NCBI GenBank assembly: GCA_945859975.1
Contig: CAMAPH010000015.1
Location: forward strand, 1-62,196
Length of the DNA: 62,196 bases
Source of the DNA: Chthonomonas calidirosea
Lineage (GTDB): Bacteria > Armatimonadota > Fimbriimonadia > Fimbriimonadales > Fimbriimonadaceae
Direction: 5' to 3'
Made by a program: the position numbers. Position 1 is the stretch's first letter. Each line of letters starts with the position of its first letter. Positions 30,001 through 36,000 of the stretch are shown in pieces.

Positions 30001-33000
30001 GAGAATCGCTATTGCGAGCGCGGGTGCCTTCCTGATCAACGATCTCCGTGCATAGCTGAACGCAATCGGAGCAAATCGCCCCATAGAGTCCGGTAATCAG
30101 CCGCGACACTGAGTCCTTTGATCTTCCACAAAGGGCGCAGAGGTCGCGGCGATCTGGTGCCTGCATCATCGTGCCTTGATTATCGGTTGGACGGTCGAAT
30201 TACGTTATCCACGATCCCGTAATCCTTCGCTTCGTCCGAAGACATCCATCGGTCACGATCGCAGTCGATTCGAACCTGCTCTGGATCCTTCTTGGTGTGC
30301 TCACCCAAGATGATCATGAGCTTGTCCATCAGCGTGTTGGTTTCTTTGACCTGAACATTGATGTCCGCCATGGTTCCTCGGAATCCGGAGGAGACTTGGT
30401 GAATCATCACGCGGGCGTTTGGCAACGCGCTTCGCTTGCCGTCCGCACCCGCGGCCAAGAGCACCGCGCCCATGCTCGCCGCGATTCCGACGCAAGTGGT
30501 CGCAATCGCTGGCTTCACCAACTGCATCGCATCGTAGATTGCGAGTCCGGCATAAACCGATCCGCCGGGCGAGTTGATGTAAAAGTCAATGTCCTTGTCT
30601 GGGTCTTCCTTTTCGAGGAACAAAAACTGGGCGACGATCAGGTTGGCGACATAGTCGTCAACTTCCGTGCCCAAGAAGACGATCCGGTCTTTGAGAAGCC
30701 TCGACCACAGGTCGTAGCTTCGCTCACCGTTCTGCGTTTTTTCGATAACGTACGGAATTCCCATCTGAATGCAGATTACTCCGCGCTGAACTTGGGAGTT
30801 CGCAGGACCAATGCCGAGTAGGACCTTGGATCAGTCGCATCCAACGGGATCTCCCGCAAGCTTGAACCTTTAGTCTCTCAGCATTCCTCGACAAACCGTT
30901 CAATTCGAGGATCAGGAATGAGCCACATTGCCGCTAGAGCAGCGTAGATCACCATCGAAATCCGCGAGTCGTACGGCGACACCAGCACGCCGAGAACGTA
31001 GCCAACAATGGAGCTACGTCCTTTCAGATCGTTTCCGATCGCGCGGGCCAGGAGCGAGTTCGTTCCCTGTGAGCGAATGATCACCGTTTGAAGAATCCAG
31101 TAAGCCACCCCGCACATTCCCAAAGAGACGCCATACAGTTGAGTTGGAATTGCCGCAAAGTTCGACCGACCAAGCCAACTCGTTGTGAAGGGTACGAGGG
31201 TCAGCCAGAACAGCAGATGCATATTTGCCCACAAGATGCTTCCGTTTACACGGGTCGACAGCTTCATCATGTGGTGATGGTTGTTCCAGTAAATGCCGAC
31301 GTGGATGAAACTGAGAACGAACGAGAGAAACACCGGCCAAACCGACTTCAGCGCTTCCCAGGATGTTAGTTCCGGTGCCTTGATATCAAACACCATGATG
31401 GTGATGATGATCGCTAAGACCCCGTCACTAAACGCTTCAAGTCGACCGTTATTCATTTGGGTTTTGGAGATAGTCTTTCATTTCTCCGGAGGCAACGTCC
31501 ATCACGCAGAATCGTCTTGGCTGGCTGAATGAGCCGAGCTCGACATCACCGTTGTTCTGAATTGCCCCCATTAAAATGACGTACCGACACCGGACCTTCG
31601 TGGCCTTCACCAATTCGAGAATCCGCTCGTCAATTGCTTCATAGATCACTTCCGTTGCTTCAAAAATTCGGTTTGGAGCCCCAAGAATCCGATCCTTCTG
31701 CCTCAACAGAATCTGTTCAAGCGTGTTCATCTGGTAATCAAGCTCTTGCAGTTGGCCCGGTATAACTTCGTCCCGTTCCAGTCGGCCGAGCGCCGCCCGC
31801 GCGGCGCCGCAACAGCCCGTCCGGGCCGAATGACCGTGTCGCATGATGCTGCCAAGTTCACCTTCCGAAGAGATTCCGATGTGCGGTCCGTAATAAATGA
31901 ACATCGCGCCGTCCTCCGGTGCGTGACTTGCGAACGCGCCCATTCCCGTGAGGCCAGTGAACGGAAACCCGTCCAATCCACCCATCTTGAACGGGCCCAG
32001 AAACTCCTTTGCCCGCGCTGGGTATTGAATACTGTTGACATCATCGCTGCAGATGCTATCGGCTGACATCACTTGCGATGGTTCTAAGTCCAGCTCCATC
32101 TCCACAAAGTCGATGAGCCGATTCACCGCGTCAATTGTCGTTAAGGCACCCGGATAGTGCTGACGAATAATTTCAAGCTTCTCACGTTTTTTCATAAAGT
32201 TCACAAAAGGATGTCGTGGGTTGGCCGAATCGCCGGTGGCAATTCTGTTTCCCCAATCATCTCCAACATATCAATTTCCATTGCCCGTTGCAACTGAGCC
32301 ATCGGAACATCGTTCGGACCACCCTCAAACGGATTTTCAGTACTATCGCCCACCTGCTCCAAAGTAGTAAAGATCCAGGAAACAATCACGCTGAATGGAA
32401 CCACTAGCCAAACGCAGTAGGGGTTGTTCGGTGCCAATGCGCTGAACTCTTTCAGGAGTCCGAAGGGAAGCAGGGTTGCGAAAAGCTTCACAAACATGCC
32501 GTTCGCGGTCGCAAACTGACGAGGATACGGAGTGTTCTTAATCCGCTCGGCTCGACCCTGAGCATTGTAATGGCTGGTGATGGCCTCCTGAAGCGCGACG
32601 TGCCGAACCGAGTCCAGCTTGCCATCGGCCGCTAGCCGTCCAACGAGCGTCGACTGCAGGCCCATAATCTGCGTCGCCCGGTTCTTTGTTTTCAGGACGC
32701 CCGCAAGTTCTTCTTCCCCCAAAAACTTCGCCAGCTCCACTTCCACTGGCGTCACCATCTCCGGCACTTCGAACCAGCGCTCGCGATACTCCTGGTTCTG
32801 CGGCTCCACCATGCTCTCCCATGCTCGGGGCTCGCGAAGCTGATACCGCAAGGCCGCAACCCAGGCCAAATGCCGCCGAACCAAATCTCGGACCAGCTCC
32901 GGATCGTGCGGAAGGTAGCCCTTCGTCATTGCCGCCCAGGCCCGACTTGCATTCATGATGCTGCCCCAAATCTGCCGGGCTTCCCAGGCTCGATTGTAGC

Positions 33001-36000
33001 TCTGGGTGTTCTTGAAGCCGACAATGAAAGCGGTAGCCGTACCGAGCATCGCCACCACGGGCCAAGGAATCGCCAGCCACTTCCAACCCAGCCAAGCATA
33101 AAGCGCGACCGGAACGAAGCTGTGCACCAGCAGAATGAGCGCCCTCCGTCGGGTCCACAGCATGACTTCTGCAATCCGATACCGCCGCCCCGTGTGCATG
33201 CCGCAATTATGTACAGAATCTTAGGAGTGCGACAGTTCTACTGCCCCTTTTCGCAACTCGCAAACTCACCCAAGGTCGTACCGCAGCGGCTCTGCCGCAG
33301 CCACCCGACCCTGGAGTGCGGCAGTTCTACTGCCGCTCTTTGCAACCCGCAAACACGCCGAAGGCCGTAGCGCGGCGGCTCTGCCGCCGCATGAGAATCA
33401 GTTGTAGCCTTCGAACTATCGCGAACCGTCAGCAGTACCGAAAGAGCAATCCGCTCCAGCACACTGAACACGGTAGGTCCGGGATAAGAAGGGAGGCAGC
33501 TTATCCCGTGCATGAAAGACCGCCACGTTCTCGCCTTGCCGATCGTACGAGATTTCAAACCTCTCCCGCCTTTCCGGTCGTTCAAAAACTTCGCGGGTGT
33601 GCTCATGGATCGAGTCGAGAAGATCCGAGTAGCTTTCCGGCAACCAGCGATTCTCCACCCAATACTTCTCGGCATGAATCACTAAGAGCCCGAAACTTTG
33701 GTTTACAAAAGACTGCCACCGGAAGTACCGCTCGAACCCGAAACATCCTAAAGTCAGGACGGCGAAGATAATCAGCCCATTGCGTAGTTTCAAGTTCATC
33801 CTTCGATCCACTCTGGAGTGCGGCAGTTCTACTGCCGCTTTTTTGTAACTCACGTTTTCACCCAAAGTCGTACGGCGGCAGCTCTGCTGCTGCACTAGAC
33901 TCAGTTGTAGTCAGGGTTTGACTACTTCAGCTTCCGGTACGCCTTCACGACCGAATCATCGTTGACCGCATTTTCCAACAATTCCCCAAGCATTTCCTTG
34001 TAGTCAGACGACACGACGAGCACGCGGCCCCGGTACCGAAAGAACTGAAAGAAGCGCCCTTCGACTTCAATCAGATTTGAACTCAAAGTGTCGATTCGTC
34101 CGTCGTAGCGATTGGCGCGGACGATGCGTGCAAGCAAGGGCTGAACCTCTTCTTCATCAAGGAAGGCAACGATCCCCGGTCGGTCACCGTCGATGTCAAC
34201 AACGGACTTCACGGAGATCGTTGTCCGCAATTGCTGGGCCAATCGCTTCTCACATTGCAGACGGTGCTTTTCGGTCGGATTCGGAAACTTTGCCTCACGA
34301 GCAATCGGCACAGCCCAAATGAGCATTCCCAGGCCAATAGCAATCATCACTCCAAAGTCAGTCCAGGGAAGCCCGAAGAACGATGACTTCTTTTTCACGC
34401 TTTTGATACTAGACATCCTCAATCTCAATCTCACTAGTTGATTCGGTCTTCCTTGCGGATTGCAAATTTGCCGAACCTTTGATCATGATCAATCACTCAT
34501 CCTGTAGTTCTGGGATTCGACCAACTTGCCGTTCACAAAGGTCCTTTGGCAAAACAGCGGTCCAGACGCAAACATAACGCTCCAATAGCTGTAACCTTGG
34601 ATCAGCGTCACTCGACCGCTAAACGACTTTGTTACGGCAACGCTCCTCGCGTCATAATGCTCTTTCAGTCGGAAACAACGCCAGTCTTTTGCATCGTAAT
34701 TGTTCCCCGGACCAGCAAGCGTTCCTTCAAACTCACTGGTCCAAGATTGAATCGGCCCGGGTCCATTTTCATGCGTGCTTACGAAGAGCAAGCCCTCTCG
34801 CTTGCCATTACGGTTGAGCTGTTCATCTTTCCGGACAACTTCCATCGGCGTGATCCGAATGTCGATCGGATCGGTTTCCGTCAGATCAAGCGTGCCAGTC
34901 TTGTCAAATTGTTCAACGTATCCCTGCATCGATAGGGGGATTGGGCGCCATAGAACAAATACGGAAAGGGCAACGCAACCAACGGCTCCAACGACCATAA
35001 CTCCGCAGCATCCGAGTGCCACCTTCCGGTTCTGTCCCTTTCGCTCCATTTTGCTCCCCTTGTTTTAGCAACATCCTCAGAAGCGTCAGAGTGCCACGAT
35101 CGGATCTTGGAGTGCGGCAGTTCTACTGCCGCTTTTTGTCACCCCCGAGTTCACTCAAGGTCGTAGCAAGGCGGCTCTGCCGCCGTGTTGACCCAGTTCG
35201 TAAGCATTCATCCACTGTCGTCGAGTTGAGCCCAGTTGCGATTTCTTCCAGTACGCCGCATCCAAATGTCCACGGCTCTCGGCCGCGTCTCGCAAGTCAT
35301 CCAGGTAACCCCGATAACTGCACCAGACCACCAGGACCTCTGCTTTGTACTTCTCAAACCTGTAAAACCGCGCTCCGGTGCGGAAAAGGTTCTGGCCTAG
35401 TCGTTCAACTTTATCTCCGCTCAAATTCGCTTGATCAATGCGCGAAACAACGGTTTCAACGTTGTCATCTTCCAACAAGGCGACCATTCCGGACCGATCA
35501 AGATCGATGTGAACAACTGACTGAACCGAAATCGGAACTCCAAAATCCCGTCGCAGGTCCTGCTCAAGCCGTACTCGGTGAGATTCTGTCGGGATAGGAT
35601 GGTCAATCTCCGCCATCCACCTCGCGATCCAAACGATAGAAGCGACTCCAATGATTGACATCGCAACCAAGGCAATCCAGCCCGGATCCATGGCGCCAAA
35701 CCTGCTCCGACTCATCGCATTTGACCTAATGCCGTCAGTCTGCAAGCGCTCGGCCCATTGCTTCGAGCATTAGTCCGCAATGTAGTCATCCGATTCCACC
35801 AACTTGCCATCAACAAAAGTCCGCCAGGAACAAAGGAATCCGCCCGTGAAACACATGGTCAGAAAGTCTGGTCTTTCCATAATCAAAACTCGCCCGCTGA
35901 ACGATTTGGTTACCGCAATGCTACTAGAGTCAACTTGTGCCTCCATCCGATAACACGTGAGGTCTTGGATACGCCCTGGGTGCTTTCCACCCGTGTCCGG

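Follow-up and report, generated by a model that had tools for sequence, protein, structure and literature searches.

A putative bestrophin and theta-type carbonic anhydrase cassette inserted ahead of a TMEM175 channel gene in Chthonomonas calidirosea

Introduction

In algae, a bestrophin and an LCIB- or theta-type carbonic anhydrase (CA) form a CO2-concentrating pair (thylakoid BST1-3 with LCIB/CAH3 in Chlamydomonas, bestrophins with theta-CA in diatoms). The same two families, followed by a TMEM175-family cation channel, are encoded in the window analysed here, a stretch of 62,196 nucleotides (contig CAMAPH010000015.1) from a Chthonomonas calidirosea genome without Rubisco, pyrenoid or photosynthesis. 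How did these genes come together, and what could a CA do between two channels in such a cell? An earlier survey of the genome had read the locus as a horizontally acquired bestrophin-CA module that was then extended with a K+ channel. The evidence below agrees with the acquisition and points to the reverse order, with the TMEM175 gene resident and the other two inserted before it.

Layout of the locus and its proteins

Three tightly packed minus-strand genes are followed by clpP and clpX:

32201..33199, minus strand: bestrophin-family channel gene, first gene of the cassette; ORF of 332 aa, Bestrophin_2 family
31449..32195, minus strand: LCIB/theta-type CA gene, second gene of the cassette; 248 aa from the ATG at 32195, LCIB_C_CA family
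30878..31456, minus strand: single-repeat TMEM175-family cation (K+/H+) channel gene, resident; 192 aa, TMEM175 profile
30180..30764, minus strand: clpP; CLP_protease at 247.4 bits, 113 nt downstream of TMEM175
28877..30169, minus strand: clpX, downstream of clpP; AAA_2 and zf-C4_ClpX (Pfam)

The survey's gene families and spacing were reproduced from the ORFs and from Pfam (Bestrophin_2, 154.2 bits with a cut-off of 27; LCIB_C_CA, 240.8 bits over profile positions 2-223 of 223; TMEM175, 104.1 bits over positions 1-88 of 88). The bestrophin stop lies 5 nt from the CA ATG, and the CA stop and TMEM175 start overlap by 8 nt, which suggests coupled translation of CA and TMEM175. The CA ORF has an alternative GTG start at 32204 (31449-32204, 251 aa); the ATG at 32195 is the start in relatives (MKKRE..).

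By sequence comparison with the PDB, the CA falls among LCIB-family structures, as the survey had found (6kfs, 3.2e-30; PtLCIB4 5b5y, 3.3e-25). Residues C49, D51, H91, H105, C128 and C129 (248-aa numbering) are invariant in 56/56 aligned sequences, which extends the invariance noted earlier for the zinc-ligand columns C49, H105 and C128/C129; the C-S-D, H and CC motifs are thus kept throughout, and the serine of C-S-D corresponds to S47 of PtLCIB4, a residue that the depositors mutated according to the PDB entry titles. The CA has no N-terminal hydrophobic stretch and is therefore predicted to be cytoplasmic.

The closest solved relative of the bestrophin is KpBest of Klebsiella pneumoniae (4wd7, 3.6e-27), of similar length and likewise with a hydrophobic TM2 neck. 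Mapped through the alignment with 4wd7, the window's neck reads T54/F58/F62 and its aperture position V198, the latter being I180 in KpBest. Both phenylalanines recur in 97/97 CA-linked bestrophins, with T (88) or I (9) at position 54, whereas the aperture varies (Y 40, F 37, L 7, I 5, N 4, H 2, V 1, W 1). As described in an excerpt of PMC8496536, KpBest, with its IIF neck, is a Na+ channel whose preference shifts to Cl- upon I66F. The (T/I)FF neck of the CA-linked proteins matches this Cl--favouring configuration and, unlike the IIF neck, is predicted to be of the anion type.

The TMEM175 protein aligns with 5vre (2.2e-16), including the RxEAFSDGV motif in TM1, and resembles the prokaryotic channels 5vre and 6hd8 in its single 6-TM-type repeat, length (~190-200 aa) and full-profile match. 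A literature search found no report tying prokaryotic TMEM175 channels to a CA or bestrophin; what sets the window's gene apart from these channels is a link that would have arisen by foreign genes inserting before it. The window's genome has a single gene of each of the two families TMEM175 and Ion_trans_2. It also carries two beta-CAs, one of them in the SulP-beta-CA pair already noticed in the survey, and the same set is present in two relatives, G041 and G048; the theta-CA is thus an addition and not a replacement.

Empty and filled sites

The insertion and its upstream surroundings comprise three features:

31471..33200, minus strand: inserted cassette, present in the window and absent from G041, G048 and two public runs; left edge uncertain (~31464-31487)
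33203..33215, minus strand: conserved 13-nt island, TGTACATAATTGC on the gene strand, containing a CATAAT -10-like hexamer
33218..33389, unstranded: two copies of an ~83-nt hairpin-rich REP-like intergenic repeat (families D1-D4), directly upstream of the island

The window's flanks match G041 at 94.1% (21198-31470) and 93.5% identity (35108-43178) and G048 at 80-88% (blastn), and both relatives lack ~31471/31487-33200: homology ends at 31470 in G041 and at 31486 in G048, and restarts upstream at 33224 or beyond. At these empty sites the TMEM175 protein is 100% (G041) and 88% (G048) identical to that of the window, and its gene is preceded by a leader of 63-64 nt, colinear between the two relatives, versus 1762 nt in the window. 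Because the empty site is common to a near and a far relative, it is taken as ancestral. TMEM175-clpP-clpX with an empty site was further found on one metagenome contig and in one isolate-like run, the latter probably G041 itself; in these public runs, X6 and X4, the flanks meet with no cassette between them (31470->33416 and 31463->33483, respectively). Among the relatives' genomes, ClpP adjoins TMEM175 only in G041 and G048, a resident synteny that the window has in common with them. The cassette is thus polymorphic for presence and absence, and this synteny with an empty site indicates that ~1.7 kb of bestrophin and CA were inserted next to a K+ channel gene that was there first.

Filled sites were also recovered. 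The X2 contig (22,841 nt), from another lake study, covers 30400-33391 at ~96% (117 differences in 2,992 nt), so that the filled site is not an assembly artefact; X3 fragments cover both cassette genes, and the C-terminus of the CA recurs in eight proteins that are 94-100% identical to it and encoded on contigs of 8-376 kb. The filled allele persists across lineages ~4% diverged.

The best joint explanation, to which we assign a probability of roughly 0.5, combines a horizontal gain of the two-gene cassette, which would have entered behind the promoter-like island and ahead of the resident TMEM175 start codon, with the functional K+ channel link and the export mechanism proposed below. In the window only 3 nt separate the island from the bestrophin ATG downstream of it, and in relatives ~50 nt separate it from the TMEM175 ATG; among 29 genus loci it recurs in G041 and G048 only. 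We infer that it is a resident promoter element now driving all three genes; a consensus promoter scan made no call at the island, so this role is read from position and motif. The adjoining REP-like stretch folds with z = -4.04 and differs by indels and rearrangements between genomes and public runs.

A recurrent K+ channel partner

The survey had described bestrophin plus CA as a recurrent module, mostly in records with Bacteroidota titles, and this description stands: among the best 80 of 216 CA relatives, a same-strand bestrophin adjoins the CA in 55 loci (46 upstream, 9 downstream), close to the 52 (45 upstream) counted before. The absence of TMEM175 from those 80 loci also held and extends to 80 metagenome loci (0/160). 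A K+ channel of another family had been overlooked, however. An Ion_trans_2 channel gene lies upstream on the same strand in 19/80 genome and 26/80 metagenome loci, either ahead of bestrophin and CA (17/80 and 25/80) or directly ahead of CA (2/80 and 1/80). This third gene scores 45.5 bits against Ion_trans_2, and 41 of the 45 hits, namely all that cover the filter region, carry a K+ filter (SIGFGD 33, TIGYGD 7, TIGFGD 1), the remaining 4 being truncated. The triad spans several families by record title (Pedobacter, Emticicia, Chitinophagaceae, Fibrella, Flectobacillus, Saprospiraceae and Haliscomenobacter). The K+ channel gene precedes bestrophin-CA in Bacteroidota and follows it in the window.

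The strongest argument for a functional link is this recurrence of an unrelated channel upstream of bestrophin-CA: the window probably recreates, with a non-homologous channel, the mostly Bacteroidota triad of Ion_trans_2, bestrophin and theta-CA. The adjacency could instead be accidental, the cassette having landed behind a usable promoter and its two genes working alone, as they would at most other loci. Most relatives (61/80 genome and 54/80 metagenome loci) have no recognisable K+ channel within the flanks, so such a partner is not obligatory, and the missing TMEM175 in the 160 other loci and the window's deviating gene order likewise favour chance. However, we estimate the chance of landing directly upstream of the genome's TMEM175 or Ion_trans_2 gene, among ~2,900 genes, at ~1 in 1000; in 45/160 loci a K+ channel of another family has become linked independently, the 8-nt overlap suggests translational coupling, and the filled allele has been kept in the diverged lineages. 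Accident is therefore unlikely, and the three-part recurrence with unrelated K+ channels points to an undescribed channel-based bicarbonate/pH device.

Origin and age of the cassette

Horizontal acquisition, as the survey proposed, is supported by the empty sites and by the distribution of the CA: LCIB_C_CA occurs in 1/228 genomes of the order, the window's own, the 227 others being without it, and in 5/401 phylum-sample genomes, the other four all from one family (136-164 bits). The count of 216 confirmed CA relatives (from 300 candidate stretches, the best 80 of the 216 being 62-70% identical) was likewise recovered. A Bacteroidota donor is not demonstrated. For the CA (71%) as for the bestrophin (59%), the closest relative with a name is encoded on one and the same Verrucomicrobia MAG contig (43,527 nt). 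The CA tree places the window's clade, which has a long stem (0.66), with Verrucomicrobiota and Myxococcota rows and away from the Bacteroidota side (SH-aLRT 90). Among 5.8 billion proteins, candidate donors reach at most 71% identity to the CA and 59% to the bestrophin; such distances, like the long stem, are hard to square with an insertion that post-dates the split from the 94% relative. The cassette contains no mobile-element gene and shows no foreign composition (GC3 of 0.599 for CA and 0.679 for bestrophin, versus 0.645 +/- 0.081 for 44 long window ORFs). Its edges nearly coincide with ORF ends, unusually tidy for an insertion.

Several of these features would also suit a three-gene unit ancestral to the window, G041 and G048, from which the relatives lost bestrophin and CA by internal deletion: the difference begins and ends almost exactly at the bestrophin start and the CA end, the cassette has the host's composition, and the long stem suggests long residence somewhere. 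Moreover, the CA tail follows the family consensus as far as ..KDYL, yet G048 is weakly alignable along this stretch up to 31486 (80/2000 shuffles score equally well). The similarity of the G041 leader to the CA tail, however, is at the level of shuffled sequence (1920/2000 shuffles score equally well), and the 5' pieces gave no signal. Colinear leaders in G041 (94%) and G048 (80%) would require two identical deletions, or an old one pre-dating a split older than the window/G041 divergence, and the CA is missing from every other genome of the order. Taken together, loss by deletion is improbable.

A proposed bicarbonate export unit

If the insertion reading is right, one lineage of a lake-dwelling species complex would have gained the cassette, yielding a translationally coupled, presumably co-transcribed bestrophin-CA-TMEM175 unit. 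In the cytoplasm, CA would hydrate CO2 to HCO3- and H+; the inside-negative membrane potential would drive HCO3- out through the bestrophin, and K+ would leave through TMEM175, a family whose bacterial members are reported to be K+ channels. K+ exit would cancel the charge movement, so that HCO3- flux could continue, while the proton stayed inside. The net effect would approximate K+/H+ exchange from two channels and an enzyme, and may help the cell to keep its internal pH and membrane potential steady in lake water with high pH and little CO2. Human TMEM175 also conducts protons (excerpt of PMC8956256), so that its counterpart in the window may be something other than a K+ path. Epithelial HCO3-/Cl- secretion works along such lines, with cytosolic CA making HCO3-, an anion channel releasing it and a K+ channel keeping the driving force; the proposed unit would share this three-part logic, the epithelial system differing in being an animal tissue with two membranes.

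The survey's CO2-concentrating analogy survives in topology and not in function. In both settings the CA would sit on the cytoplasmic or stromal side and HCO3- would leave that compartment via the bestrophin. In the window, HCO3- would exit the cell and not enter a lumen, and the genes make up an operon-like cassette, to which a K+ channel is often added in relatives. No RuBisCO large subunit was found in the window's genome (95.8% complete), and with an inside-negative membrane an anion channel should export HCO3-, not import it. At -120 to -150 mV, such a channel equilibrates with inside HCO3- at ~0.3-1% of that outside (Nernst), so net uptake is not expected.

Inorganic carbon import, with HCO3- entering through the bestrophin and CA converting it for carboxylations as a heterotroph's counterpart of the algal pair, is still less probable than loss by deletion. 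HCO3- handling by algal BST1-3/LCIB and by diatom theta-CA with bestrophins (excerpts of PMC6708349 and PMC11142338), as well as bacterial bicarbonate supply systems required at low CO2 (excerpt of PMC8552792), make it conceivable, but besides the missing RuBisCO, the SulP-beta-CA pair is already there and a K+ channel partner suits charge compensation of efflux better than uptake. Known bacterial transporter-CA pairs (SulP/BicA-type with beta-CA, DAB and MpsAB), among them the SulP-beta-CA type resident in this genome, likewise place a HCO3-/CO2 membrane protein beside a CA or CA-like gene; these are carriers or energy-coupled uptake systems, whereas the window's channels would be passive, efflux-favouring and accompanied by a K+ channel.

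Least probable of all is that TMEM175 works above all as a proton channel, HCO3- leaving and H+ entering so that membrane potential is converted in a regulated manner into cytoplasmic acidification, or the reverse under acid stress: the human protein has a constitutive proton current (excerpt of PMC8956256), PDB depositors call TMEM175 a 'proton channel' and the CA reaction yields exactly one H+ and one HCO3-, but the canonical filter signature in 41/45 third-gene hits points to K+ as the common ion. As for the habitat assumed by the export unit, all 19 metagenome runs containing words of the window stretch are labelled lake water (14 studies); a twentieth run, X6 from a 15th study, is labelled with a coded organism only.

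The three-gene locus

Three minus-strand genes encoding a bestrophin, an LCIB/theta-type carbonic anhydrase (CA) and a TMEM175 channel had been claimed to lie packed together, and the open reading frames (ORFs), the Pfam matches and the PDB matches all agree with this. The genes and their downstream neighbours are arranged as follows:

32201-33199, minus strand: bestrophin gene, ORF of 332 aa
31449-32204, minus strand: carbonic anhydrase gene, 251 aa from a GTG start
ATG at 32195, minus strand: alternative start of the carbonic anhydrase gene, 248 aa, the start used by relatives (MKKRE..)
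30878-31456, minus strand: TMEM175 gene, ORF of 192 aa
30180-30764, minus strand: clpP, downstream of TMEM175 on the same strand
28877-30169, minus strand: clpX, downstream on the same strand

Five nucleotides separate the bestrophin stop from the ATG of the CA gene, and the CA stop overlaps the TMEM175 start by 8 nt; the three ORFs thus abut or overlap on one strand in the manner of an operon. A consensus scan of 28700-33600 called no terminator-like site between the three genes, all four of the sites that it did call (6.1 expected by chance) being inside ORFs. The scan also called one promoter-like site, compared with 2.1 expected, and left uncalled a conserved 13-nt promoter-like element (hereafter the island; 33203-33215) just upstream of the bestrophin gene. 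An Rfam search of 28000-36500 at E <= 0.1 returned zero matches, and hence no known riboswitch or leader is found there. NCBIfam has no family for the bestrophin, the CA or the TMEM175 protein.

Properties of the encoded proteins

The CA matches the Pfam profile LCIB_C_CA with 240.8 bits (cut-off 25) over profile positions 2-223 of 223, and is matched among PDB sequences by 6kfs (3.2e-30) and PtLCIB4 (3.3e-25). C49/S50/D51, H105 and C128/C129 (248-aa numbering) align to PtLCIB4 positions, so that the protein has the zinc ligands (Cys-His-Cys) as well as the Cys-Ser-Asp motif known from active LCIB members. Across the aligned CA sequences, C49, D51, H91, H105, C128 and C129 are kept in 56/56 and S50 in at least 90%. 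Some LCIB proteins have been reported to be inactive in vitro. Because its active-site residues are kept and it has no N-terminal hydrophobic segment, the CA encoded here is probably cytoplasmic and catalytically competent.

The bestrophin matches Pfam Bestrophin_2 with 153.5-154.2 bits (cut-off 27) and aligns to KpBest (3.6e-27) in two stretches, residues 19-123 and 154-326. In this HMMER alignment, in which the KpBest chain index equals the native number plus 3, the KpBest neck residues I62/I66/F70 correspond to T54/F58/F62 and the aperture residue I180 to V198. Bestrophin ORFs numbered 106 in 160 loci bearing CA relatives, and nine partial ones were dropped, leaving 97 with more than 250 query residues aligned. 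In these CA-linked bestrophins F58 and F62 occur in 97/97, position 54 holds T (88) or I (9), and the aperture position is variable; their neck therefore reads (T/I)FF, whereas that of KpBest reads IIF. A review describes KpBest as a Na+ channel with an IIF neck in which I66F shifts the preference to Cl-, and the eukaryotic anion-selective bestrophins as having an IFF neck (PMC8496536). Together with the invariant F58 and F62, these facts indicate that the CA-linked clade has a neck of the predicted anion type. A predicted complex of bestrophin and CA, based on alignments of 53 and 56 rows, scored 0.00 and returned no answer, which speaks neither for nor against physical binding.

The third protein matches Pfam TMEM175 with 104.1 bits over profile positions 1-88 of 88. 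It is a prokaryote-type single repeat of 192 aa that carries the RxxxFSD motif in TM1, where 'GRLEAFSDGV' (RxEAFSDGV) aligns to PDB 5vre (2.2e-16).

Probable insertion of the cassette ahead of a resident TMEM175 gene

The bestrophin and CA genes form a cassette that was likely inserted ahead of a resident TMEM175 gene, a reading to which we give a probability of roughly 0.85. In a genus-wide protein search, the TMEM175 protein is 100% identical in the near relative G041, whose genome is one contig, and 88% in the more distant G048, the next best match being at 55%. Outside its own clade (88%), the best TMEM175 matches are 57-63% identical and come from many phyla, values that equal or exceed the 44-55% of other genus members; the gene may be vertically inherited or may itself have been transferred at some time. 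When compared by blastn with 19 kb around the TMEM175 genes of these two relatives, the window aligns to G041 over 21198-31470 (94.1%) and 35108-43178 (93.5%), and to G048 over 22414-31486 (80%), with similarity resuming at 33302. The stretch missing from both holds exactly the CA and bestrophin genes. In line with these results, the island (gene strand, TGTACATAATTGC, 13 nt) lies 63-64 nt from the TMEM175 ATG in the relatives but 1,762 nt from it in the window, where it stands 3 nt ahead of the bestrophin ATG. G041 and G048 are mutually colinear through the leader and, among 29 genus loci, are the only two that have clpP adjoining TMEM175 and bear the island. Since the empty site is common to a near and a far relative, these alignments indicate that it is the ancestral state. 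The survey's finding had the pair 'extended with a K+ channel'; the order of events appears to be the reverse, TMEM175 being resident in the empty-site genomes.

The pair is missing from close relatives and its empty site can be identified, as expected of horizontally acquired genes, and the junction falls within 31464-31487, so that the last few CA codons may be native. The cassette bears none of the marks of foreign origin sought in base composition, mobile-element genes and edge repeats. No direct or inverted repeat of >=30 nt was called at its upstream edge (region 33150-36500), the downstream edge having been read by eye. Three points are awkward for an insertion: GC3 is host-like (CA 0.599, bestrophin 0.679; host 0.645 +/- 0.081), no mobile-element gene accompanies the two ORFs, which are the only ones inside, and the closest relatives outside the clade are 71% (CA) and 59% (bestrophin) identical, with none closer.

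Alternatively, the three-gene operon could be ancestral and the bestrophin and CA genes lost from the relatives by deletion. The missing stretch begins and ends almost at ORF boundaries, the CA tail (..ASGEMKDYL..) agrees with the family consensus [A/K][T/S][G/N][E/K]R[K/Q][N/S/D][L/Y]L of 119 homologues, and G048 is alignable as far as 31486, all of which would suit such a loss. However, a deletion common to G041 and G048 is at odds with how far each lies from the window (94% vs 80%). Moreover, when the relatives' leaders were compared with the cassette ends over 2000 shuffles, the G041 leader did no better than shuffled sequence (1920/2000 score as well), the G048 leader gave only a weak signal for the 3' end (80/2000 score as well), and the 5' pieces of the leaders gave none. 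This relic test is insufficient to support deletion, and we favor insertion.

Distribution and origin of the two genes

LCIB_C_CA occurs in 1/228 genomes of the order, the window's own, which upholds the claim that the CA is absent from the rest of it; in a phylum sample the family is present in 5/401 genomes, the other four being from one family and scoring just 136-164 bits. Bestrophin_2 is found in 4/228 genomes of the order. The three others belong to the same genus and score 267-279 bits compared with ~153.5 here, and so represent another subtype, which implies that bestrophins entered the genus at least twice. These other-subtype genes (G076:C1:29314-30132, G077:C211:6889-7680 and G080:C43:37271-38074) lie in genomes devoid of an LCIB-type CA. 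TMEM175 is present in 126/228 genomes of the order and in 38/45 other genomes of the genus, a tally that includes one unpublished genome (G011). One TMEM175 homologue of the genus (G040:C12:22581-23147) has a single in-frame TAG, which may mark a pseudogene or come from a sequencing error.

In genome records, 216/300 candidate stretches encode CA relatives; the best 80 of these 216 are 62-70% identical, and 76 of these best 80 have Bacteroidota-type titles. A survey of metagenome contigs, with near-identical records left out, gave relatives of 62-70% identity as well. For both genes, the closest relative with a name comes from a Verrucomicrobia MAG, in which the CA (P0002, 71%) and the bestrophin (P0251, 59%) lie on one 43,527-nt contig. 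Another CA and bestrophin (P0004 and P0250) share a 7,101-nt contig, and the linkage of both pairs argues that bestrophin and CA moved together. A quick maximum-likelihood tree of 84 CA rows places the window's clade at the end of a stem of 0.66, beside Verrucomicrobiota and Myxococcota rows and away from the 79-row Bacteroidota side; this grouping has an SH-aLRT support of 90, below the tool's star threshold. Given the MAG match and this placement, a Bacteroidota donor is not demonstrated. A cyanobacterial-titled MAG contig (L076, Vulcanococcus limneticus; noted together with L117, Kapaibacterium) carries a K+ channel-bestrophin-CA triad, with its CA nested in Bacteroidota rows, which may reflect a binning error or a further transfer.

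Filled and empty alleles in lake water

Eight near-identical versions of the CA (94-100%) come from several sources, on contigs of 8-376 kb, and all share the C-terminus of the window's CA. Words of this stretch occur in 19 metagenome runs from 14 studies, every one of them labelled lake water, and a twentieth run (X6, from a 15th study) is labelled only as a coded organism. Runs X5 and X7-X20 hold small shares of words and bear on the habitat label alone; X2, X3, X4 and X6 were compared over 30400-33900. A 22,841-nt contig of X2, from another study, covers 30400-33391 with the site filled (117 differences in 2,992 nt), and X3 provides fragments over both cassette genes. The site is empty in X4, where 31463 is joined to 33483 with 217 other letters between (22 differences in 1,064 nt of flank), and in the isolate-like X6 (3.3 million letters), where 31470 is joined to 33416 with 144 letters between, a structure as in G041. 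Both alleles thus occur side by side in lineages whose identity in this flank is 96-98%, and the filled site is genuine and varies in nature. The CA protein of the X2 contig (P0127) is 97% identical to that of the window and its DNA ~96% identical, which suggests that the change is mostly silent. With flanks 94-98% identical, cassette-bearing and cassette-free strains provide a natural experiment for which an isolate-like empty-site genome already exists.

A recurrent K+ channel gene beside the pair

ORFs were called around the CA, up to three neighbors on each side, in the loci of the best 80 of 216 CA relatives; two loci (L070 and L102) in which the CA ORF was not recovered were dropped, leaving 78 for neighbor clustering. 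Bestrophin is present in 54/78 loci, directly upstream of the CA in 45 and directly downstream in 9, always on the same strand, so the recurrent bestrophin-CA pair of the survey's finding holds. Additionally, a membrane protein of ~225 aa (Pfam Ion_trans_2, 45.5 bits; hereafter KCH) is encoded in 19 loci, mostly just upstream of bestrophin. Architectures were counted by tblastn in 80 genome and 80 metagenome loci, many of the metagenome contigs being truncated.

Gene architectures around the CA (KCH, Ion_trans_2 K+ channel; BEST, bestrophin)
KCH>BEST>CA: 17/80 genome loci; 25/80 metagenome loci
KCH>CA: 2/80 genome loci; 1/80 metagenome loci
BEST>CA: 29/80 genome loci; 25/80 metagenome loci
CA>BEST: 9/80 genome loci; 1/80 metagenome loci
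CA alone: 23/80 genome loci; 28/80 metagenome loci

A K+ selectivity-filter signature is found in 41/45 KCH matches (SIGFGD in 33, TIGYGD in 7, TIGFGD in 1), the other four ending before the filter, and the gaps between the KCH and bestrophin genes are often 2-20 nt. TMEM175 adjoins the CA in 0/160 of these loci. The K+ channel of the window could also adjoin the pair by accident. However, its genome has a single gene each for TMEM175 and Ion_trans_2, and we estimate the chance of a foreign pair landing directly upstream of either at ~1e-3, which makes coincidence unlikely; the arrangement looks as if the K+ channel component had been replaced by a non-homologous one.

Two further features were seen around the CA. 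A Crp-like cNMP_binding gene (38.6 bits) lies directly behind it in 6/78 loci (e.g., L108:5743-6321), the cNMP_binding neighbors comprising seven ORFs, four on the opposite and three on the same strand; in Emticicia-type genomes its product may regulate the module. A second bestrophin type, 33-43% identical to that of the window and with an xFF neck (IFF or TFF), lies downstream of the CA mainly in Chitinophagales records (L049, L050, L053-L055, L058, L105, L118 and L126).

A possible channel-built K+/H+ exchanger

In the most likely reading of how the unit works, with an inside-negative potential of 120-150 mV, a passive anion channel would only let HCO3- out, and in dilute lake water, where the K+ equilibrium potential would be more negative than the membrane potential, an open K+ channel would let K+ out. 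The two currents would cancel, allowing a continuous exit of KHCO3, while the CA would refill HCO3- from CO2 and the proton would stay inside. Overall, K+ would leave and H+ would be kept, the channel-built equivalent of K+/H+ exchange, which could serve to hold cytoplasmic pH under that of alkaline surroundings and to tune the membrane potential. In a wider proposal, a K+ channel, bestrophin and theta-CA would make up a widespread, undescribed bacterial device that works through channels alone, in which hydration of CO2 in the cytoplasm, an electrogenic loss of HCO3- and a balancing loss of K+ would jointly mimic a K+/H+ exchanger and set both the cytoplasmic pH and the way in which the proton-motive force is divided; its K+ part would be interchangeable between unrelated families (Ion_trans_2 and TMEM175), and the algal LCIB-bestrophin arrangement would be the re-use of an older bacterial module. 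We rate the chances of this wider proposal as low. Two other readings compete with the mechanism itself: TMEM175 could serve as a proton path, human TMEM175 being known to conduct protons (PMC8956256), or the module could take up HCO3-, opposite to the direction in which a passive anion channel would carry it at the potential assumed here.

The topology proposed here is that of algal stromal LCIB with thylakoid bestrophin, but carbon fixation is absent: the window's own genome (95.83% complete) has no RuBisCO_large match, as would be needed for a CO2-concentrating mechanism in which the module serves Rubisco and a carbon-fixing compartment. The same genome has two beta-CAs, one directly behind a SulP gene, and G041 and G048 have two beta-CA matches each. 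The SulP-beta-CA pair claimed for this genome is indeed there (G000:C11:3290-5369; L209 3-2082), a SulP gene (Sulfate_transp 201.7 bits) being followed with a 14-nt overlap by a beta-CA gene (Pro_CA 154.3 bits), and it is a second, native anion-transporter/CA pair. When Pro_CA alone is compared, matches of near-equal score are found in G041 (155.1 bits) and G048 (154.6 bits).

The bestrophin, theta-CA and TMEM175 families are known mainly from algae, animals and lysosomes, and the recurrent triad offers one testable hypothesis for the bacterial members of all three at once. No account of a bacterial bestrophin-LCIB operon emerged from a literature search, which also turned up no paper on a K+ channel-bestrophin-CA triad with queries that did not include K+ channel terms. 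A membrane path for HCO3- combined with a CA is documented; the K+ channel component and the recent assembly by gene transfer are what is added here. A bacterial counterpart of the algal bestrophin/LCIB coupling is thereby suggested that could be studied in simple hosts, algal CO2-concentrating mechanisms being of interest for crop engineering. The algal bestrophin/LCIB-type pairing is known functionally (PMC6708349, PMC11142338), and a 2026 survey of microbial CAs has theta-CA largely confined to diatoms and protozoa (PMC13098186).

Repeats and a duplicated gene pair upstream

Upstream of the cassette, the gaps between small genes hold four to five copies of a REP-like repeat of ~83 nt with GC-rich hairpins, among them:

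33218-33300: REP-like repeat copy
33307-33389: REP-like repeat copy
33810-33910: REP-like repeat copy
35103-35185: REP-like repeat copy

Folded as minus-strand RNA, 33218-33400 gives z = -4.04, and the number and spacing of the copies differ among the window, G041, G048 and run X2. Further upstream, a two-gene unit is duplicated in tandem on the minus strand (33922-35049 and 35155-36393), with ORFs of 170 and 186 aa in one copy and 196 and 207 aa in the other that are 34% and 36% identical (E 1e-29 and 3e-28). The first copy has no Pfam match, and in both copies the first protein carries a hydrophobic segment at its N-terminus. Window positions 33911-35107 are missing from G041, and the copy number of this unit thus varies between strains.
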